Assembly (NCBI GenBank): GCA_963717465.1
Contig: OY970340.1
Coordinates: 2,048,001 to 2,112,000 of the forward strand
Direction of reading: 5' to 3'
Origin: Candidatus Bathyarchaeota archaeon
GTDB lineage: Archaea > Thermoproteota > Bathyarchaeia > Bathyarchaeales > Bathycorpusculaceae
DNA: 64,000 nucleotides
The number at the start of each line of letters is the position of its first letter. Position 1 is the first letter of the stretch. Position numbers and translations under genes: made by a program. The notes beneath the pieces were generated by a model. It saw nothing but the letters and a program-made list of their open reading frames with translations, ran no database searches and had not been told where the DNA came from. Positions 6,535 to 63,631 of the stretch are shown in pieces.

Positions 6535-6719
6535 TCTTCCTCACAGCTTAATTTATAGGACAATATACTATTAAAACTTGGCAATCTATTAAATCTTTTA
6601 CATATGTTCTAATAGTGTTGAAAAATTGGTTTTTTTGTTTAGATATATAGATGTAAATGCAACCAAGTTTTATTAATCGATAGTCACATGTATCCAATCT
6701 TAGCTATAGAGTAAATAAA

Positions 6720-9050
6720 ATGGGAGATAGAATGATGAGTGAACAAATTGTAGACCCTAAAAGTTTCGATGGACTTCACAGATGCATATGCGGTTTTTGC
6801 AGTACCGGATCTTGTCAATTGCTTGAAACAGTTCAAAACGGTAAAATCGTTAAGGTTGAACCTGACTGGGAAAGCCCATTTAACCCTGGGCCGTACTGTC
6901 AGAAGTGGAAGTACAGTCTAGAATACATTTACAACAAGGACAGGCCAATGTACCCAATGAAGCGCATTGGCAAGCGTGGCGAAGGCAAATGGCAAATAAT
7001 ATCCTGGGAGCAGGCGGTAAGCGAAATAGGCGCTAAGATGAAGGAAATCATTGCAAAGTATGGTGCTGAAACTACTTGTGGTTTCTGGGGTACAGGTCGA
7101 GCCGCAAACTTAGGTTTAGGGCTTGCTAGTTATTTTGTTTTGATTGGCAGTCCGAATTTTGGTTCGATTGCGGCTCAGACATGAGCTGGACCCACGAACC
7201 AGGCCCTAGGATTGGGTTATGGCGTGGGAATTACGTATGCAATGATTATCCCTGGCAAGACGAAAGGTATCTTTGTTGCTGGTACGAACCCGAGTGAGTC
7301 TTGGACTTATTCTTGGCCTGCTTTCGTTGCGGGATTGGAGGCTGGCACGAAAATGCTCTGTATTGATCCGCGATTCAGTGAGACTGCGAGGCTTTCTGAA
7401 AAATGGTTGGCGATTAGACCTGGGACTGATGCTGCATTGTTTATGGCAATGATAAACGTGCTCATTGAAGAGGACCTGTATGATCATGATTTTGTGGAGA
7501 AATGGACTTTTGGATTTGACAAGCTCAAGGAACGGGCTAAGCAGTATACGCCTGAGAAGGCTGCAGAGATAACTTGGATTCCAGCTGAGAAGATCAGGGA
7601 AGCAGCAAGGTTCATAGCGAAGAACAGTCCATGCACTTTCCCGTTTGCCTACGCGATTGAATCATCAGGCAGGAACTCTTTAAGCAACGTTCGCGCAAAA
7701 TACATGATGCCCGCGTTAACCGGCAACATCGATATTGAAGGCGGCGAATACCTACACGCAAAACCGAAATTTCTTGGCGGCACAATGGCAATGCACGATA
7801 TAGCTGCGTCAGCAGATGTTGATCAAATGATGAAGCAGGTTGGATTGGATAAGTATAGAGCGTTGAACTTTACGATTGCTCCCTTGATTAATCAGGCAGC
7901 TGATGCAAAAGGATACTGGACAGGTGGTGCTCACTCCTCTGGAACAAGAGGTCCAAACTTCCCGACCTTTACAGATACAATGGTATCAGAGAAGCCCTAT
8001 CCAATCAAAGCTATGATTTCCGGTGAAGTAGGTCCAATGCGGAATTATCCAAACATCAAGAAAGTCTATGAAGGTTTGAAGAAGCTTGAACTGTTCGTTT
8101 ACATTGAATGCGCTCAAATGACGCCTGAAGCAATGATCGCAGATTATGTTTTGCCTGGCACTAGTCAATTTGAGAGAAATTCCGGCTACGCGACTGTTTC
8201 ATGTCAAGGTGAAATTGAGTTTGAGATCGCTGGTGATCGTGCCGTTGCTAGCAAAATACCTGGACTATGGGATCTAAGAGATGATAGCATAATATACCGT
8301 GATCTCGCAGTTGCAACACTTGGAAACGAAAAAGTTGATAAAGTTTGGCCTTGGAAGACTTTAGAAGAGTTTCAGGACATTTTCTATGAGCCTGCTGGTT
8401 GGACGCGCAAACAGGTGATTGAGGAATGGAAGGGTGTTCCGCCGTATGAGCCGAAATTCAAGAAGTACGAGGAGATTGATCCTGAGACTGGACAGATTAG
8501 GGGCTTTGGTACTCCTGAGGGTAAAGTTGCTTTCTACTCTACGATTTTGGAGCAGCTTGATTATGATCCGTTGCCGTATTATCAGGAATGTGCTTGGACG
8601 CCAATCAGTGCACCTGACATCGCAAAAGACTTTCCGTTGATCATGTGTAGTGGTGCCAGATTCCAGGAAGCTCACCATGGCGAACTACGACATATTAGCT
8701 TGATGCGTCATTTGCGGCCTTTTCCACGTGTAAAAATGCATCCTTTGACAGCGCGTAATATGGGTATTGGTGATGGCGAGTGGGTTTACATTGAGACTCC
8801 TGTTGGCAGGTGCATGCAGCAAGTGCGGTACGATTTCGGCGTTAATCCGAAGGTTGTTTCGCCTGAGCATGGTTGGTGGCGTCCAGAATTGCCCGGTGAG
8901 GAGCCATTCTTGCATGGATGGACTGACTGGAACATTGACGTTACAATCCCGAACGATGCAGAACAACTTAGCCCAGAACTTGGAGCCTGGTGCTTCAAAG
9001 CGGCGCTCGCAAAAGTGTACTCAGCCAACATTGGACCAATGGGACCATAA
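6720..9050 (+). CDS. Molybdopterin (Mo/W-bisPGD) oxidoreductase, acetylene-hydratase-like, with in-frame UGA (candidate selenocysteine) at 7182-7184
   Basis: ORFs 6720-7184 and 7212-9050 are in the same frame, separated only by one TGA; N-terminal CxxCx4C..C 4Fe-4S motif; IDPR, RPGTDAAL, C-terminal molybdopterin-dinucleotide domain; TGA lies in GSPNFGSIAAQT* matching GSPN...C of acetylene hydratase. Confidence 0.88.
7191..7228 (+). promoter_or_regulatory. Candidate bacterial-type SECIS hairpin
   Basis: CCCACG/CGTGGG, CCA/TGG and GGCCC/GGGTT stems with a TAGGATT apical region, starting after a 6-nt spacer 3' of the UGA. Confidence 0.5.
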
Positions 9051-55024: not shown

Positions 55025-55693
55025 TCAAAAAAGTTTCGTCTGCTGAGTATTTCTACCGTTTAATGCTTTTTTTGCCGGTTTCCATGATTTCCTTATGCAA
55101 TCTGGAAAGTCATTGTTTTTTTTCAGCCATTGATTGATGAAAATCATGGTTTTCTCGTCTGTTAGGTATCCACTTCCAAAATCGCCATACTTATTTCTTA
55201 AGTCAGCTATTTCTTGGTCGCGTTGAACTTTTGCGATAATAGAAGCAGCAGAAACTATCGGGTATATTCTGTCCGCTTTATGCTTAGAGATTATTTTTGA
55301 TTTAGTTGTTAAGCATTCCTGAATGTGCTGTCTAAAACGATCTTCAACGCACGTCTGCTGCGTCAACGTAGACCTCGTCCGGTTTTAGAAAATCAATTAT
55401 TTTCGCCATTGTTTGCGCTTCAAGCCTATTCAGTTTATGGAGTTTTCTTTGACTTTCAACGACCTTATCGATTTCGCTTGGCGCAAGTTTTATCGTATGA
55501 AAACTTTTGGTTAACTTTGTAATTTCAATGTATAATTCTTCACGTTTCTTAGGCGACAAAAGTTTTGAATCTTTCACTCCGAGCTGGCTTAAAAACTGGA
55601 GGTTTTCTGTTTCCAATGCAACTCCCGCAACAACAAGCGGACCAACTACGCATCCACGTCCAGCCTCGTCAACTCCAGCAATTAACAGTTCAA
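55025..55693 (-). CDS. rnhB: Ribonuclease HII (frameshifted; start approximate)
   Basis: IAGVDEAGRG, GVKDSK, VDAAD, HKAD...VSAASIIAKV, GSGY. Confidence 0.93.
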
Positions 55694-55912
55694 TACACCC
55701 TTTTTCAACGAGTAACTTGGATAATAGATTTCTTAGCTATAAAATTTTTTCATAAACATCTTCTTCAAGGTATTCAGCGTTCTGTTCAGCCTACCCAAAC
55801 CTAAAACATCAATCTGCACCAAAAGCCGTAATCAGACTGAATTCTATCTGATTTTTCTCTAAGAAAGGCTTATAGGCTAATGTTACGGGTTATTTTAAAA
55901 GAGCGCCATTTT

Positions 55913-55928
55913 GGGCGGGTAGATCAGT
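55913..55928 (+). tRNA. 5' fragment of host tRNA-Ala(GGC) (attL)
   Basis: GGGCGGGTAGATCAGT complements the acceptor 3' strand CCCGTCC at 57973-57979, including G3:U70; TATA-like TATTTTAAAA at 55891. Confidence 0.8.
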
Positions 55929-56016
55929 ATACGCCCAAAACGAAAGCAACCCGCCCAAAGAAACAATCCAGAAAATAAAAGACGCACTCCAAGCAATCAA
56001 CGAAACCGAAAACCTG

Positions 56017-56958
56017 ATGAAAGCAAAACAAGACGACAACGAACATATAAAAAAGACAAAAAGAACACTAACACGATTAGCATCAGAAACAGACATTTTT
56101 AACCCAACCGCAGTTTTAACATACATAAAAGACTTAAAAAGAGACAAAAAATCAGCCATAAACCAAGACGTAACACCCGACAAACCACTAACAAAAGGCT
56201 ACAAACTAAAAATAATATACGCCTATGCAGTATTTTGCCAAGCCAACGAAATACCTTTCAAACCACCAAAAATAAGTTACGAATCACCAATACCAATAAT
56301 TCCAAGCACAGAAGAAGTCAATCAAATAATAGGATGCACTTCTAACAACTATGCAACAATTTTCACTATAATGAAAGAAACCGCCGTAGAATCAGACGAA
56401 CTACATAAAACATCAAAAAACCAAATTGACAAAGAAAAAGGCATTCTAAGCATTATAGGAAACAAACAACATAGTAACGGAACCTATAACCTCACAATAC
56501 AAACCGCAACAACGCTAAGAATATATTTAGACAAACCAGAAAAGAAAACAAATTTCAAGCGACAAATACCAAAAGAAGAATATCCATTCCCAACAAGAAA
56601 ATCAATAAGCAAAGCATGGTTAGACGCAAGAACCAAAGCATCCATAAAATACCAAAATAAAAACCTCTTAACAATACCATTAAAAAACTTAAGAAACTAC
56701 GCAGGCGCAGTCTATTATTTTACTTATGGCAAAGACGCAATAGCAACACAACAATTTATGAGACATAAAAATTTGCAACAAACAAGCAACTACCTAAGAG
56801 GAATAAAAGGATTCACAATGCGACTACAAAAAATCGGAAAAATCACAACAACCGCGGAAGAAACAATGGAACTAATACTACAAGGATTCAAAGAAGAATC
56901 AGTATTTAATCAAGGAACACCAAACGAAAAACACGTTTTAACAAAAATAAACATATAA
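56017..56958 (+). CDS. Tyrosine recombinase/integrase
   Basis: LKNLRNYAG (HxLR-like) and FMRHKNLQQTSNYL (H...Y) motifs; very A/C-rich strand; frame open back to 55876. Confidence 0.8.
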   Translation: MKAKQDDNEHIKKTKRTLTRLASETDIFNPTAVLTYIKDLKRDKKSAINQDVTPDKPLTKGYKLKIIYAYAVFCQANEIPFKPPKISYESPIPIIPSTEEVNQIIGCTSNNYATIFTIMKETAVESDELHKTSKNQIDKEKGILSIIGNKQHSNGTYNLTIQTATTLRIYLDKPEKKTNFKRQIPKEEYPFPTRKSISKAWLDARTKASIKYQNKNLLTIPLKNLRNYAGAVYYFTYGKDAIATQQFMRHKNLQQTSNYLRGIKGFTMRLQKIGKITTTAEETMELILQGFKEESVFNQGTPNEKHVLTKINI

Positions 56959-56964
56959 ACATAA

Positions 56965-57039
56965 TGGACAAGGGGGGATTTGAACCCCCGACCTCTACAA
57001 TGCCAATGTAGCGTTCATACCAAACTGGACTACTTGCCC
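56965..57039 (-). tRNA. tRNA-Ala(GGC), intact, element-borne
   Basis: GGGCAAG/CTTGTCC acceptor with G3:U70, CTACA-TTGGCAT-TGTAG anticodon arm, GGGGG-TTCAAAT-CCCCC T arm. Confidence 0.93.
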
Positions 57040-57333
57040 ATATTTTTTAGTTCTACTCCGTATTACCCTTTAAAGGTTACTAAACAGAAAAGCAAAATAA
57101 AAAAAGGAAAAATAATTATTTATCAACCACCTAAAACACAAAGACAATTAATCAAGCAATAAAAAGCACGGAACAGGTGAACATGCGCTATCACACTTTT
57201 TGCCCACTAAATCACAGTCATATTTCAGGAAAACAGAAAACTAGATTATACACTTAAATGTAAAATACGGGTAAAATTAACAAATCATTCGACCGACCAC
57301 CCAACAATAGAGTTAGCCATTGGTCAATGAATC

Positions 57334-57684
57334 TCATCGATGTTCTATTAGACAGAGTCTGACTCCATTCGGGTCTTCGATAAAGGCACACCTTCCAACG
57401 AGTATGGGAATGGGTTCCATTGTGATCTTAGCACCTTTGGCTCTTAGCTCGTTCAAAGTGGCATTCAAATCCTCTACGTCCACTCCGATTGAATACAACC
57501 CTACTTGATAATGTGGGTCTTCTATAACCTCAATCATGGCATCTCCTTCCCCTTTCAGAAGGGTAATCGTCGATCCTGATCGGGGTTTGTATTGACTATC
57601 AACCGTAAACCCCATGACAGAGGTGTAGAATTTTACCGTTTCTTCCATGTTTTTTACTATCATGGTAGAATATTTAACTTTCAT
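57334..57684 (-). CDS. VOC/glyoxalase family protein
   Basis: [35 protein letters not shown]. Confidence 0.9.
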
Positions 57685-57905
57685 AATTTTAGCAACCTTT
57701 GAATAACTTTTAAAGTTTGCGTTTGAGACAACTGAGGCTTTTTCTTTTTATTAGTTTTTGAAAGCGCAAATAAAATAAACCTGCACTGATGGTAACTTAC
57801 GTTAGAGTGATTGCTATGTCTGGAACAGAAACGTTGCTTCCGTACGTTAACGATAAGAAAAAGCCAACGGAAACGAAAAAACCGTTTTGCACAAAAACAA
57901 TTTGA

Positions 57906-57983
57906 CGACAGGTTGATCAGTCTGGTACGATCGCCACGTTGGCATCGTGGAGGCCGCGGGTTCAAATTCCGCCCCGTCCACCA
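57906..57983 (+). pseudogene. 3' part of disrupted host tRNA-Ala(GGC) (attR)
   Basis: Complete D, anticodon (CCACG-TTGGCAT-CGTGG) and T arms plus ACCA, but the local 5' strand CGACAGG has two mismatches and lacks G3. Confidence 0.8.
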
Positions 57984-58502: not shown

Positions 58503-58666
58503 TTTTTATTCTTCCCCCTCTACGGTGAGCTAATATAAACGACTGTGGAATCTTTTAAGGCATTTTACATGACACCCCTTACCTCTGCAGACGCTCAAGT
58601 ACGATTATTTAGTCAAAAATCTTAAGTTGTACCTTGCAGTATCGCTTAGAAAATGGAGAAACCCAA

Positions 58667-58957
58667 ATGAGCGCAGTAGAAACGGCAATGAGCATTGCGA
58701 GCATCATCAACTTTATTGCTTTATTGTTACTGTTGCAAGCCGTTATAAAGAATCGAAACGGGCTTAAAGGATACAGCATAACAGGCTCATTCTTAACATT
58801 TGTATCCCTCTGTGGCTTTGAAGTTGCCTACTACTTAATGAACAACCTTGTCAGCTTGATTTTAGGTTTTGCAGCGGTAATCTTTTGGTTAATAGCCTTC
58901 ATTTACACATTCAAACAAAAACTAAGCAGCACAAAACCAAAAAATCAAGAAGCTTAA
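58667..58957 (+). CDS. Small three-TM membrane protein (PQ-loop/SemiSWEET-like)
   Basis: Three hydrophobic helices, KNRNGLKGYS loop; GGAG upstream of ATG 58667. Confidence 0.6.
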   Translation: MSAVETAMSIASIINFIALLLLLQAVIKNRNGLKGYSITGSFLTFVSLCGFEVAYYLMNNLVSLILGFAAVIFWLIAFIYTFKQKLSSTKPKNQEA

Positions 58958-59307: not shown

Positions 59308-60272
59308 TTGGTGTCTCTAAATGGCTTCCGCAAGGATTACTTAAGGCTAAACTTCTCGATCAATGAAATTGTTATACAATTCAAAGAATGGGCTACTGAA
59401 GACACATATATGATACTAAGCAAATGGAACCCTAAAAAGTGGAAAAACGACGTTTTTGCGGTTAAATGTGCAAAACGCGGGAATGATGTTTACCGTAGCA
59501 GGGTTGAGAGTAGATTCAGAGGATTAGCCAATAAGGCTGAGGCATTAGCGTTTTTTAACCCGAAAGCGAGAGGAGCGTTAGCGACCTGAGCATTATGGTT
59601 AACATTGATTTACGATACTGAACTCTACGCTTACAAGGATGCATGGGCGAAGATCGGTGTTGAGTTTAACGGTTTCATTGCTTACGTTAGGAGCCGTTTT
59701 GGTAAGGTTTCGTGTTGTCGGGTGTTTGAGTCTTTTGAGAATGGTTATCCTCATATCCATTGTATTTTGCTTTTTCAAGAATACTCCTTCTTAGTCTTTA
59801 GGGATGGTAAGGGTCACTTTAGAGTAAAAGAGAAAGAGGCTATCGATAGTGTTTGGCATAGTAATGTTGACGTTAAAGCCATGAGTTCTCTGGCTGGCGG
59901 TTTCTCTTACCTTAAGAAATATCTTTTGAAAGGAATAGATTTTGAGAAGGCTGATTTAAAGGGTTTGAAGCCGTTGGCTTTATGTTGGTTGTTTAGGAAA
60001 GGGCTTTTTCTGTTAGTGGCAGTTTCCGTAAGGCGTTATCCGACTTGATAATGGATTTGCAGTAGTCAAACAAGAGGTTGGTTCAGGTTACGCTTTTGGG
60101 TGAGGAGATTGTTGAGGAGAAATTCTATGTGTTAGGTTTTGTTAGTTCCGATGTTATAGGTATTGAAAAGGATTGTTGGTTTGCGATTTTATCCTCTAAG
60201 CAAATTGATTCTTTGAATAGCCATCTATCAAAATTCAAGAATTTTGTGATGGATTTTTCAATCTTGAATTAA
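59308..60272 (+). mobile_element. Rolling-circle HUH replication initiator (Rep), copy 1, with in-frame TGA at 59587 and 3' frameshifts
   Basis: Motif I LWLTLIYD, motif II FESFENGYPHIHCILL, motif III YLKKYLLK. Confidence 0.8.
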
Positions 60273-60450: not shown

Positions 60451-62154
60451 ATGAAGTTTAAGGTTTGGAAAATTTTATGTTTATTATTTGCTGTGATTTT
60501 TGTTTTGTCAACAATTCATGCAGTCCACGCCACCACTGAGATAGTCGGCACAATACCAGTGGGAATTGATCCAGAGGGCGTTGCTTATGATTCTGGCATG
60601 GGCGAGATATTTGTAGCCAATGAAGCTTCAAACATGGTCTCAGTTATAAATGACACCACCAATGCTGTGGTCGCGAACGTGACTGTAGGATCCTACCCAT
60701 TTTGGCTAGCCTATGATTCTGGCATGGGCGAGATATTTGTAGCCAATGAAAATTCCGGCACGGTCTCAGTCATAAATGACACCACCAACACAGTAGTTGC
60801 AAACGTAACCTTAGGATCCTCCTCATCCGCAATAGGCGTTGCTTACGATGCTGGCAAGGGCGAGATATTCGTAACCGACAGCGGTATGGCCAAGGTCTGG
60901 GTTATATCTGACAGCAACAACACTGTGGTCGCAAACGTGACTGTAGGAGCTGAACCGTTTGGCGTTGCTTATGATCCTGTTCAAAACGAGATATACGTAG
61001 CTAATTATTGGTCCGGCACGGTCTCAGTCATATCTGACAACAATAACACTGTGGTTGCATCAATACAGGTCGGAACAGTCTCCGGGTTTGGATCTTGCTG
61101 GGGGATTGCTTATGATTCTGGAAAAGGTGAGATGTTCGTAGCCAATTGTTACGATAATGATGTTGCAGTTATCAATGACACCACAAACACCGTAATTACA
61201 ACCGCGTACGTGGGAGACTATCCCGAGGGTGTTGCTTATGATCCCGATACAGGCGAAATATTCGTAGCCGACTTAAACGGTCATGATGTTTCAGTGATAA
61301 ATGACACCACCAACAACGAAATCCCCTCGGACCTCAGCTTGGACGGTGGTCACCCTCAGGGCATTGTTTATGATTCTGGTATGGAAGAGATATTCGTGCC
61401 CACCGGCTCGTTAGACACTGTCGCGATAATAGCAAATCCAGCTACTTTGTCTCCTCCAACGGTGACACCTTCACTGAGCACTGTCACTCAAGGGCAAGAC
61501 AGCAATTTGACTTCAACCGCAGTAACCACAGGTACTTCGCCATACACATATCAATGGTTCAGTCAAGCCCCTGATGCATCATCTTACATAATGATCAGCG
61601 GCGCAAATATGTCAAGCTACGACTTCGTATCCACAACTTCAACAGCAACAGGCACATGGAACTTCATACTTCAAGTAACAGACAGCACTGAGGCAGCAGT
61701 GAACGCCACCGCAGCATCAGTAAATGTCAGCACGCTTGCAGCTACTACTACTCCAACGCCATCGCCAAGTCCAACAGCAACATCCTCACCAACAGCTACG
61801 CCGGCGGCATCATCATTCACTTTATCGCCTATTGATATGGTTGCAATCATAATTGTGATTGTTGCGGTTATTGTTTTGTTGCTTTTGTTGCTTTTGTTCA
61901 TGGGTCGCCACACTATTGACGCTTCAGCAGACAAAAATGGCACTATAACTCCGGATGGGAAAATACGCGTAAGCCGCAATGCAAACAAAACCTTCGAAAT
62001 CAAACCCAACGCGGGCTATCAGATATCTGATGTTCAAGTGGATGGAAAACCAGTTGAGGCCAAATCCACCTACACTTTCGAAAACGTCAAAGAAAACCAC
62101 ACAATCGTTGCAACCTTCACAGCAGAACAACCAGACAAAAACAAAAAAACTTAA
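60451..62154 (+). CDS. Secreted YVTN/YncE beta-propeller surface protein
   Basis: Signal peptide, seven GVAYD...EIFVAN...TVSVIND repeats, Ig-like segment, T/P linker, TM helix, C-terminal repeat domain. Confidence 0.9.
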   Translation: MKFKVWKILCLLFAVIFVLSTIHAVHATTEIVGTIPVGIDPEGVAYDSGMGEIFVANEASNMVSVINDTTNAVVANVTVGSYPFWLAYDSGMGEIFVANENSGTVSVINDTTNTVVANVTLGSSSSAIGVAYDAGKGEIFVTDSGMAKVWVISDSNNTVVANVTVGAEPFGVAYDPVQNEIYVANYWSGTVSVISDNNNTVVASIQVGTVSGFGSCWGIAYDSGKGEMFVANCYDNDVAVINDTTNTVITTAYVGDYPEGVAYDPDTGEIFVADLNGHDVSVINDTTNNEIPSDLSLDGGHPQGIVYDSGMEEIFVPTGSLDTVAIIANPATLSPPTVTPSLSTVTQGQDSNLTSTAVTTGTSPYTYQWFSQAPDASSYIMISGANMSSYDFVSTTSTATGTWNFILQVTDSTEAAVNATAASVNVSTLAATTTPTPSPSPTATSSPTATPAASSFTLSPIDMVAIIIVIVAVIVLLLLLLLFMGRHTIDASADKNGTITPDGKIRVSRNANKTFEIKPNAGYQISDVQVDGKPVEAKSTYTFENVKENHTIVATFTAEQPDKNKKT

Positions 62155-63290: not shown

Positions 63291-63631
63291 TTTTCTTAAG
63301 AATTATCTTCGGCTTAATTTTGACTTGCGAAGATTTGTAGGCGAATATCAGGATTGGGTTTCTGAAGCTACTTATATGGTTCTTGTTCGCTGGAATAAAG
63401 AGGAATGGAAGAATGATGTTTTCGCCGTTAAAGGTGCTAAGCGAGGAAATGATGTTTACCTAAGCCGAGTTGAGAGTAGATTCAGAGGATTAGCCAATAA
63501 AGCTTTGAGGAGTTAGCGTTTTTTAACCCGAAGGCGAGGGGGGCGTTAGCGACCTGAGCGTTATGGTTAACATTGACTTGCGATACTGAACTCTGCGCTT
63601 ACAAGGAGGCATGGGAAAAGATTGGCGTTGA
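63291..63631 (+). pseudogene. Truncated Rep copy 2
   Basis: Clear nucleotide homology to ~59330-59663 (WKNDVFAVK.AKRGNDVY...LAT*ALWLTL); ends before the HUH motif. Confidence 0.82.

Follow-up and report, generated by a model that had tools for sequence, protein, structure and literature searches.

Mobile elements classically insert into tRNA genes because the target survives integration unharmed, and the rule, in the parts of the literature available to us, is that integration into a tRNA gene reconstitutes an intact copy (Williams 2002, per PMC8371274 and PMC6563490). The locus described here raises the question of what happens when the target is not mended. In a genome of Candidatus Bathyarchaeota (G000), the two parts of a tRNA-Ala(GGC) gene lie on either side of an insert that carries another tRNA-Ala gene with the same anticodon. 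Here, we asked how this arrangement could have arisen and which gene the cell now uses. Coordinates refer to the window, i.e., the whole stretch of 64,000 nucleotides that was analysed, and the features of the locus are as follows.

55860–55912, +: native promoter region of the host tRNA-Ala(GGC) gene, aligned with the relatives' block and now pointing into the element
55913–55928, +: displaced 5' fragment of the host gene (nt 1–16, attL side), unique and identical to the relatives' 5' end
55929–55958, +: element-side recombination arms (inner arm 55929–55936; outer arm AACCCGCCCAA, 55948–55958)
56017–56958, +: tyrosine integrase, 313 aa from the first ATG (Pfam, homologs, XerA profile)
56964–57040, −: complete cargo tRNA-Ala(GGC) (ARAGORN; Rfam 61.3 bits; G3:U70, A73, no encoded CCA)
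57067–57076, −: TATA-like box CCTTTAAAGG, putative promoter read from the sequence, ~28–37 nt upstream of the cargo tRNA
57334–57684, −: VOC/glyoxalase-family cargo gene, 116 aa (Pfam Glyoxalase, 58.4 bits)
57901–57921, +: right end of the element (attP left arm), with a degenerate tRNA 5' arm (57906–57914) and the second overlap copy (57915–57921)
57922–57983, +: 3' part of the host gene (nt 17–76 plus CCA), compared with 19 relatives
58634–58957, +: conserved downstream neighbour, a membrane-like ORF of 107 aa by which the canonical tRNA-Ala(GGC) locus is recognised

The interrupted host gene and its locus in relatives

The first 16 nucleotides of intact tRNA-Ala(GGC) genes in relatives are identical to 55913–55928. 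This 16-mer occurs once at zero or one mismatch in the whole 3,053,889-bp genome, and the chance recurrence considered by a first-pass annotation of this DNA is not seen at that stringency. At two mismatches it is found at five places including itself, two of which are the 5' ends of tRNA-Ala(CGC) and tRNA-Ala(TGC). The ~55 nt upstream of 55913 align with a block (taagaaaCGCTTATTAAA...) that is conserved upstream of tRNA-Ala(GGC) in relatives, and the TATA part of this block is changed to CTTATAGGC in G000. Judged by these alignments, 55913–55928 is the true 5' end of the native tRNA-Ala(GGC) gene, with the native promoter still in front of it.

When 55913–55928 and 57922–57983 were joined by script, a tRNA-Ala(GGC) with a perfect cloverleaf was obtained, in which the acceptor stem pairs at 7/7 positions including G3:U70; the proposal that the two halves rebuild a complete tRNA with a 7-bp acceptor and the alanine identity pair thus stands. 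Relative to the 19 relatives, the 3' part has two private changes, a D-loop C at 57928 and U61 at 57968, the latter giving G53·U61. This pair had already been taken as a sign of decay, and the D-loop C and the altered TATA block now stand beside it.

A contiguous tRNA-Ala(GGC) gene starting GGGCG[G/A]GTAGATCAG is present at every one of the relatives' 19 loci, which answers the earlier call for an intact site in related genomes. The synteny that had been proposed between rnhB and tRNA-Gln held on one side only. Downstream of tRNA-Ala(GGC), homologs of the 107-aa ORF (50–61% identity) are found in G019, G004, G009, G010, G022, G266, G299 and G277, while on the left flank the relatives' upstream gene differs from that of G000. 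We considered the element as the cause of this left-flank break (350-aa gene, G000 990222–991268) and rejected it: the breakpoint lies upstream of the tRNA promoter, and the break is thus independent of the att site. The adjacent rnhB appears frameshifted, perhaps through indel errors. As read from these comparisons, the gene interrupted by the element is the native, single-copy one for tRNA-Ala(GGC), and the cut falls in its D-arm, at an overlap of 7 bp.

The element, its integrase and the recombination site

The element comprises 1,993 bp (55929–57921), and its contents, a tyrosine integrase, an intact tRNA-Ala(GGC) on the opposite strand and a VOC-family gene, match the first description when checked with ARAGORN, Rfam and Pfam. 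AT skew is 0.3–0.5 across 55850–57200 and about zero in the flanks. The VOC gene has no match at E ≤ 1e-10 in any of the 90 other genomes of the genus, and the integrase family is patchy, occurring in 50 of 301 genomes including G000. By its AT skew, the absence of the VOC gene from congeners and the patchiness of the integrase family, the insert is foreign. Short contigs of other samples are identical to parts of the element (56222–56527 and 57092–57322), and one contig from another sample spans the integrase 3' end and the tRNA at ~95% identity. No contig of four public DNA runs (6–11% of sampled words) extends across attL or attR, an empty attB or the junction of a circle. The contigs of these runs hold pieces of the element plus many foreign tRNA-Ala genes. 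Viral contigs scanned with the homolog P0002 and with the integrase-family alignment yielded no relative.

The integrase frame is open back to 55876, and where the closest homologs have their start codons an ATA (55975–55977) is found. Similarity to known profiles is weak, with 20.3 bits (E 5e-4) against Pfam PF00589 (Phage_integrase; cut-off 27.1) and 35 bits against NCBIfam XerA (cut-off 220). A profile built from 27 members of the family aligns with XerA 4A8E along almost all of its length (E 2.8e-7, positions 19–287). There are 56 homologs, the best being P0002 (82% identity) and then P0003 (81%), and several have a precomputed PF00589 match. In the alignment to XerA, the catalytic residues K150, R226, H250 and Y259 find their counterparts and do not vary within the family; the position of the first catalytic Arg holds Glu (E125) throughout the family, and that of the first His holds Lys (K223). 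We infer integrase activity from the sequence, and the enzyme may be impaired, given the ATA at the homologs' start, the Glu for the first Arg and the Pfam score below cut-off. The SSV-type (self-splitting) design, to which the pTN3-like integrases belong and in which attP sits within the integrase ORF so that integration divides it into int(N) and int(C), was rejected since a TGA (57914–57916) stands in the integrase frame of the right arm; no in-frame N-terminal piece is present there. For the homologs of G275 and G303, the att core precedes the start codon.

The premise that tRNA-targeting integrases normally cross over in the anticodon loop, the T-loop or at the 3' end proved overstated, as integration in the 5' half is documented (PMC8371274, PMC3293823). 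Within the family itself, the 5' end of a tRNA gene is adjoined by 37 of 62 members, and in the one member with a plain tRNA and aligned repeats (n = 1) the 5' half is duplicated. Family targets include tRNA 5' halves, the 3' end of RNase P RNA and the ends of protein genes. The direct repeats that bound relatives of the element measure 36 bp (G111), 21 bp (G303), ~30 nt in four copies (G275) and ~36 nt, imperfect (G056). At these loci, 5'-part tRNA integration is routine in the distant clade of the family, and the members of that clade that were checked normally restore their targets. The first-pass annotation had asked whether homologs of this integrase sit in D-arm-split tRNAs with a same-anticodon cargo tRNA. 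The preference for tRNA 5' ends is borne out, while a tRNA downstream of the integrase was found at none of the 91 other family loci examined, a set that does not include the loci of P0002 and P0003. Metagenome loci of the integrase number at least 57, and P0002 and P0003 are not among the matches listed.

The overlap GATCAGT occurs at 55922–55928, as the last 7 nt of the 5' fragment, and again at 57915–57921. The 16-mers at the two junctions are identical at 12/16 positions, with mismatches at tRNA positions 1, 3, 5 and 9, so that 11 nt are shared with one mismatch; the core first described is thereby reproduced. The outer arm AACCCGCCCAA is an inverted match of the host's TTGGGCGGGT (55911–55920). 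Upstream of related integrases, inverted arms (GGCNRGT ... ACYNGCC) come out as the top pair at 12 of 20 loci, and at 7 of the 20 they are perfect (8/8), a result reached by ≤3 of 100 shuffles for each. GATCAGT takes the exact place of the 7-nt spacer in L084, L027 and L083. In arrangement, then, both junctions follow the att layout typical of the integrase family, as aligned here. A better natural target for the right arm was sought among 90 congeners, two of which have a match at three mismatches against nine reversed-control matches, i.e., chance level.

An unrestored target, a cargo tRNA and the competing explanations

The tRNA-like copy at attR (57906–57983, +) scores 43.0 bits with the Rfam model, and the native genes of relatives about 59–66 bits. 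It carries C1·C72, A3-U70 in place of G3:U70, A5·C68 and U9, and its acceptor stem pairs at 5/7 positions. By its pairing, the element-supplied arm fails to rebuild either the acceptor stem or G3:U70, as had been claimed for an element that targets the D-arm and does not properly restore the gene. Differences are found at 4/9 element-derived and 2/62 host-derived tRNA positions (Fisher p = 0.0017, with sites treated as equally mutable). This clustering suggests that the arm differed from the tRNA before integration, and with an arm already differing no functional tRNA-Ala would have been rebuilt at attR.

The cargo gene is the only intact tRNA-Ala(GGC) in the assembled 3.05-Mb genome (estimated completeness 88%), which upholds the report of an intact isoacceptor on the element. 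Its score lies inside the range of relatives' native genes (59.2–65.9 bits). Its identity to the native, syntenic gene is 97% in the congener G266 and 96% in the congener G299; what it has in common with the congeners' gene is the mature body and neither flank. The CCTTTAAAG box is also found upstream of the native tRNA-Ala in L003, and near-identical boxes (GCTTTAAAG, CGTTTAAAG) in L007 and L010. On these features the cargo tRNA gene looks functional, and its product is presumably expressed and charged. GCU and GCC account for 15,467 of the 30,673 Ala codons counted in ORFs of ≥300 aa. Since the only host gene is cut and unmended and the element has a complete copy, the cell probably depends on the element's tRNA-Ala(GGC). 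Precise excision would rejoin a nearly normal gene, and thus the dependence on the cargo tRNA would not be strict.

On balance, and with moderate confidence, we favour the explanation that an integrative mini-element entered tRNA-Ala(GGC), left it unrestored and supplies its own tRNA, while the host remnants decay. The 1,993-bp element, bringing a classical non-split tyrosine integrase, a promoter-bearing tRNA-Ala(GGC) and a VOC-family gene, would have entered the native single-copy gene by site-specific recombination of the tyrosine-recombinase type. Strand exchange would take place in the 7-bp GATCAGT, which covers the D-stem's 5' strand and the first part of the D-loop, and the acceptor's 5' strand (GGGCGGGT) would be the arm that the integrase binds on the host side. 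The native promoter and nt 1–16 would then stay at attL, directed into the integrase gene, and nt 17–76 would be fused at attR to an element arm that already differed, leaving no functional tRNA-Ala there. From then on, GCU and GCC would be decoded by the element's tRNA-Ala(GGC), whose allele is the native one in other species of the genus, and decay of the host remnants would have begun since.

Non-restoration together with a cargo tRNA is a single case among the loci studied.

An unlikely yet serious alternative is that integration was at first restoring: the arm was once a good copy, the gene was rebuilt at attR, and it then decayed beside the second functional tRNA-Ala(GGC). Relatives of the element do restore their targets (G111, 36 bp; G303, 21 bp; G275, where the match to RNase P RNA covers the entire model). 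The reverse complement of the outer arm (55948–55958) equals the tRNA 5' end at 10/11 positions, ends in GGGTT and fits an ancestral GGGCGGGTT followed by GATCAGT, and the two private changes in the host-derived part and the changed promoter also agree with decay. However, the differences cluster in the 9 element-derived nt, and there is a 2-nt length difference just upstream of that arm; taken together, these are not predicted by uniform neutral decay.

It is improbable, in our estimate, that the tRNA was only a look-alike (secondary) site for an element whose real target lies elsewhere, e.g., at the start of a DegT-type aminotransferase gene, the cell having survived through a tRNA-Ala(GGC) that the element carried by chance. 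The right-end arm is similar to the one found where the DegT gene starts in L084 and L027 (TTTGGCAGGTTGAT...), the exact sharing of 7 bp is short for this integrase family, and relaxed-site integration is reported for SSV1 and SSVK1 in the portion of PMC8371274 available to us. Against this, the outer arm fits the tRNA-Ala 5' end (10/11 positions) better than it fits the DegT-type arm, the DegT 5' end of G000 itself is a poor match, and the integrases of L084 and L027 are only 43% identical to that of the element. Moreover, the cargo is exactly the isoacceptor that was destroyed, which would have to be a coincidence.

A chimeric join, either of the insertion or at one junction, is very improbable: although this is a single-contig, metagenome-type assembly with a frameshifted rnhB, the overlap is clean, family-typical arms stand at both junctions, and the contigs of other samples described above match within the element and across the integrase and tRNA. 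Hardly credible is the idea that the halves still yield a working tRNA, either by trans-joining of the products of a split gene or because the 2-kb insert is taken out like a giant intron; archaea do have split and multi-intron tRNA genes, and related elements seem to put D-arm insertions into rebuilt tRNAs (L049, L054; PMC3293823, as far as the consulted part describes them), but the insert has an integrase, an opposite-strand gene and direct repeats at its ends, the trailer–leader duplex of −7.5 kcal/mol lies within the shuffled range (mean −8.5; 59% of 300 shuffles as good or better), and ARAGORN in intron mode (≤3,000 nt, anticodon-loop introns only, by which a D-arm insert is uncallable) gave no such gene.

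Relation to known systems and biological meaning

The closest parallel is an insertion of 1,868 bp that carries a recombinase gene and lies at tRNA-Thr(GGU) in Caldiarchaeum subterraneum; it was put forward as one way in which tRNA genes become disrupted (Sugahara et al. 2012, PMC3293823). In the part of that account available to us, it resembles our element in size (~2 kb), in its one recombinase ORF, in its place within the 5' portion of an archaeal tRNA gene that exists in one copy, and in having the tRNA 5' fragment with upstream sequence on one side and the remainder on the other. However, the downstream gene is rebuilt there (with an extra intron at 24/25) and the element brings no separate tRNA gene, whereas here the copy is defective and a same-anticodon gene is carried; the junction is at nt 16/17 here and at nt 24–27 in Caldiarchaeum. 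As the consulted sections of the review PMC8371274 put it, pTN3-like integrases of Thermococcales use the tRNA 5' half as attB (Cossu et al. 2017) and restore an uninterrupted tRNA gene that is expressed from the integrase promoter. Our element likewise targets the 5' side and places its own DNA upstream of the tRNA body, but its integrase is unsplit and the tRNA gene unrestored.

With classical non-split integrases and XerA it shares the whole integrase gene beside attL, and the inverted arms around a 7-bp overlap are like those of lambda-type sites, as outlined in PMC8371274; it differs from them in its weak similarity (Pfam below cut-off) and in the Glu at the first catalytic Arg. Like phages and genomic islands, as the sources consulted present them, it uses a tRNA gene as attB, has direct repeats at both ends and has its integrase adjoining one junction, whereas the target is not reconstituted and a separate cargo gene supplies the function. 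The 5'-part integration was thus already known; the novelty lies in a target left unrestored together with a replacement gene of the same anticodon, a pairing for which a keyword search of the literature found no published account.

If the favoured explanation is true, this is a horizontal replacement of a chromosomal tRNA gene, the cargo allele being the native allele of two congeners. Tentatively, it is possible that this represents a 'disrupt-and-replace' lifestyle, in which an element knocks out an essential single-copy tRNA gene, supplies its own allele, grows hard to lose as the remnants decay and moves tRNA alleles between species. An element could in this way become indispensable without a toxin, and an essential tRNA allele would be exchangeable between species. 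The locus would also provide a concrete intermediate for the long-debated origin of fragmented archaeal tRNA genes by mobile-element insertion. Finally, it gives this widespread and uncharacterised family of integrases from Bathyarchaeia-type archaea a candidate recombination site, built of two 8-bp arms around a 7-bp overlap.

The element and the divided tRNA-Ala(GGC) gene

The element occupies 55929-57921, and its interior holds an integrase ORF, a minus-strand tRNA and a VOC gene; ARAGORN calls three tRNA genes in the whole window. Here, attL and attR denote the left and right junctions, the cargo tRNA is the element's own tRNA-Ala(GGC), and the attR copy is the 3' part of the host gene fused to the element's right arm.

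Features of the locus (window coordinates)
56017-56958, integrase ORF, 313 aa; Pfam Phage_integrase 20.3 bits, under the cut-off of 27.1
56964-57040, minus strand, cargo tRNA-Ala(GGC); ARAGORN, Rfam tRNA model 61.3 bits
57067-57076, TATA-like box of the cargo tRNA, read from sequence
57334-57684, VOC/glyoxalase-family gene, 116 aa; 58.4 bits
57906-57983, plus strand, tRNA-Ala(GGC)-like gene (attR copy); ARAGORN, Rfam tRNA model 43.0 bits
59157-59230, tRNA-Gln(UUG); ARAGORN, Rfam tRNA model 62.1 bits

Over 55850-57200 the plus strand has a strong excess of A (AT skew 0.3-0.5, versus approximately 0 in the flanks), and the VOC gene had a match in none of the 90 other genomes of the genus.

The first-pass annotation described the sequence of this locus accurately. 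Joined by script, 55913-55928 and 57922-57983 form a tRNA-Ala(GGC) in which the acceptor stem is fully paired (7/7, including G3:U70), just as had been claimed. Chance recurrence of the 55913 match was not found, as the 16-mer has a single site in the 3.05-Mb genome when no more than 1 mismatch is allowed. With 2 mismatches allowed, four further sites appear, two of them tRNA 5' ends, those of tRNA-Ala(CGC) and tRNA-Ala(UGC). The 62-nt 3' part, used as a query, found a match in 38 of 41 genomes (G000, the genome under study, counted), and a contiguous tRNA-Ala(GGC) gene starting GGGCG[G/A]GTAGATCAG was present at 19/19 relatives' loci examined. The conserved promoter block of these genes ('taagaaaCGCTTATTAAA...') aligns with the 55 nt 5' of 55913, with its TATA part changed in G000, while the DNA 5' of the attR copy is unrelated to it. 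Anatomy and comparison give good support to the interpretation that a mini integrative element has broken the native tRNA-Ala(GGC) here and brings a replacement with it.

Comparison of the interval between rnhB and tRNA-Gln with relatives agreed on the right side, where eight other genomes also have the 107-aa ORF (58634-58957) as a conserved downstream neighbour of tRNA-Ala(GGC), and failed on the left, where relatives have a 350-aa gene whose G000 ortholog lies at genome 990222-991268. The break in synteny falls between the promoter of the 350-aa gene (retained at 991 kb) and the tRNA promoter (retained at attL), and is therefore a separate rearrangement; its being part of the insertion is ruled out, since the breakpoint is upstream of the tRNA promoter kept at attL. 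The order of 350-aa gene, then tRNA-Ala is found in five relatives and broken in G000 (genome 990222-991500 versus window 55700-55912), where the ORF after the 350-aa gene resembles glycyl-tRNA synthetase (judged by eye from the translation) and the tRNA locus adjoins rnhB, 1.1 Mb away. The rnhB gene itself (RNase HII, window 55025-55700, minus strand) is divided into two ORFs that overlap (55025-55366 and 55344-55616) and each match Pfam RNase_HII, through either a frameshift or an assembly indel.

Directly past tRNA-Gln(UUG), split plus-strand ORFs (window 59308-60048 and 63325-63631) show a weak match (22 bits) to PF23343, a family of rolling-circle Rep proteins. A second copy of about 220 nt from this segment, 85-89% identical, lies 3.97 kb further downstream. 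After the first copy comes a surface-protein gene rich in repeats (60451-62154; seven of ~126 nt), and after the second an ORF of similar kind truncated by the window end. The segment may be a second integrated or duplicated module.

The tRNA-Ala(GGC) locus is an integration hot spot, with other insertions in two congeners. In G022 (L024 8088-18850) about 10 kb separate the tRNA 3' end from the conserved downstream ORF and an integrase of an unrelated clade adjoins the tRNA; in G010 (L025 5760-11288) a 456-aa integrase ORF ends 36 nt 5' of an intact tRNA-Ala(GGC).

Recombination site and the unrestored right copy

The site was compared over 20 loci without an upstream tRNA-like hit, G000 counted. 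At the junction beside the integrase, inverted arms GGCNRGT ... ACYNGCC were the best inverted pair in 12 loci and were perfect (8/8) in seven, a level that at most 3 of 100 shuffles per locus attained. In L084, L027 and L083 the site can be read off directly as an 8-bp arm, a 7-bp spacer and the second arm. In G000 the host arm is the tRNA acceptor strand (TTGGGCGGGT, 55911-55920), GATCAGT fills the 7-bp spacer, and the element's outer arm (AACCCGCCCAA, 55948-55958) is an inverted match of the host arm at 10/11 positions; the GCGGGT-to-ACCCGC spacing is 28 nt here and in the relative G275. Since this junction fits the family layout, tRNA-Ala(GGC) looks like the cognate target and the crossover like a regular site-specific event.

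The attR copy nevertheless carries C1·C72, A3-U70, A5·C68 and U9, which supports the claim that the element-supplied strand fails to restore the host gene. The right end of the element is the same as the native 5' fragment at 12/16 positions and differs at tRNA positions 1, 3, 5 and 9, unlike other family members with aligned repeats, where a good copy of the target arm is present. The host-derived part does show decay, as G53:U61 had been taken to suggest: U61 (57968) and a D-loop C (57928) are two private changes absent from all 19 relatives. Uniform later decay of the attR copy could account for the arm. However, the differences are concentrated in the element-derived stretch (4/9 nt, versus 2 private changes in 62 host-derived nt; Fisher p = 0.0017, sites taken as equally mutable), which favours an arm that already differed from the tRNA at integration. 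Because the test assumes equal mutability of sites, we regard uniform decay as unlikely, yet still a serious alternative.

The integrase and the target choice of its family

The protein collection holds 56 integrase homologs, the best two (82% and 81% identity) both from short metagenome contigs; 50 of 301 genomes of the family, G000 counted, have a match at E<=1e-20, and the homolog records are titled Bathyarchaeia or Bathyarchaeota MAGs. A profile built from 27 family members matches Pyrococcus abyssi XerA (4A8E; E 2.8e-7) and places K150, R226, H250 and Y259 at catalytic positions. In the family alignment (A1), Glu (E125 in G000) stands family-wide at the first catalytic Arg of XerA, and Lys at its first His. 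As clean att repeats show the family to be evidently active, its active site may be arranged differently from that of XerA.

Upstream of 56017 the integrase frame stays open through attL as far as 55876, but its first start codon is the ATG at 56017. In the alignment, G000 shows ATA (55975-55977) where G275 has its ATG and the close homolog P0002 its first residue (V); with ATA at the homologs' start position, the integrase may lack part of its N-terminus or be translated poorly. At attL, the native tRNA promoter is now directed into the integrase gene and may drive it. An SSV-type split integrase was rejected, given a TGA in the right arm in the integrase frame and homologs that start downstream of the att cores.

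In a more distant clade (33-42% identity), 37 of the 62 upstream regions examined have a tRNA gene (Pro, Gly, Arg or Ala by best library match) directly before the integrase, always on the opposite strand and with its 5' end toward the integrase; at both ends of the G111 element, nt 1-36 of tRNA-Pro(GGG) are present as a direct repeat of 36 bp. This clade therefore routinely targets and rebuilds the tRNA 5' half. Two metagenome loci of this clade, L049 (4168-4300 versus 6593-6630) and L054 (2101-2200 versus 7516-7550), have a ~30-60-nt insertion in the D-arm region of the tRNA copy adjoining the integrase and a distal 5'-half copy without it; the element seems to have delivered an intron, a route also proposed for Caldiarchaeum.

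In the closer clade (at least 43% identity), a tRNA upstream of the integrase was found in none of 13 upstream-region rows, two pairs of which are the same locus. In G275 (L118; 58% identity, the closest integrase with context) the element lies where the archaeal RNase P RNA gene (Rfam 174.6 bits) has its 3' end, and ~30 nt of that end are present four times over 9 kb (L118 2415-11711), which suggests three elements arrayed in tandem. A perfect repeat of 21 bp is found in G303, and an imperfect one of ~36 nt in G056, at a protein-gene end. Elements in L084 (5842-5861) and L027, at the same site, adjoin a DegT-type aminotransferase gene at its start codon, and the first ~20 nt of that gene thus form the host arm; in the G000 DegT ortholog (genome 477147-478247, minus strand) the 5' end has diverged.

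The cargo tRNA and its precedents

Whether or not intron mode is on, ARAGORN calls no tRNA-Ala(GGC) in the genome other than the cargo gene and the attR copy, and a blastn search with this region matched, apart from the two GGC genes, only the CGC and UGC isoacceptors. Its Rfam score lies inside the relatives' native range (59.2-65.9). In ORFs of 300 aa or more, 15,467 of the 30,673 alanine codons are GCU or GCC, the two that a GGC anticodon reads. That the cargo tRNA compensates for the broken gene, and that the host depends on it, are reasonable readings of these sequences.

The cargo tRNA is 97% and 96% identical to tRNA-Ala(GGC) of the congeners G266 and G299, where the gene stands in the canonical locus (350-aa gene upstream, 107-aa ORF downstream), and both of its differences from G266 are present in native genes of other relatives. 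Identity is confined to the mature tRNA, positions 1 to 73 (window 56965-57039 versus L134 9926-10000); the congeners' promoter block, encoded CCA and trailer are not shared. An identity ending exactly at the mature ends is odd for capture by imprecise excision. A contig from an unrelated sample spans the integrase 3' end and the tRNA (56836-57083, ~95% identity), and the linkage is therefore not private to the G000 assembly. Among the other family loci examined, a tRNA downstream of the integrase was present in 0/91.

Elsewhere in G000, an integrase paralog (genome 909814-910601) has a match that begins inside tRNA-Val(UAC), two identical tRNA-Thr(GGU) genes lie 600 bp apart (2554848 and 2555448), a degenerate second tRNA-Ile(GAU) lies at 923819, and two similar 'SeC-like' tRNA calls at 845695 and 2829638.

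The premise that 5' targeting is unheard of was wrong in view of published 5'-half cases. A review of archaeal tyrosine recombinases describes pTN3-like integrases as unique in archaea for use of the 5' half, and notes that attB sites may reach over the D-loop (PMC8371274); Krupovic et al. 2019 consider 5'-distal recombination considerably less frequent (PMC6563490). The review also has an intact tRNA gene reconstituted after integration, whereas the attR copy of G000 is defective. Sugahara et al. 2012 describe a 1,868-bp recombinase-bearing insertion in Caldiarchaeum tRNA-Thr(GGU), leaving a 5' fragment (nt 1-27) and a gene rebuilt with a new intron (PMC3293823); in G000, by contrast, the attR copy is not restored. 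In a limited word search of the literature, no case emerged in which an insertion leaves its tRNA target unrestored and also carries a complete gene with the same anticodon. Through this one locus, the G000 case bears on mobile-element biology and tRNA gene evolution.
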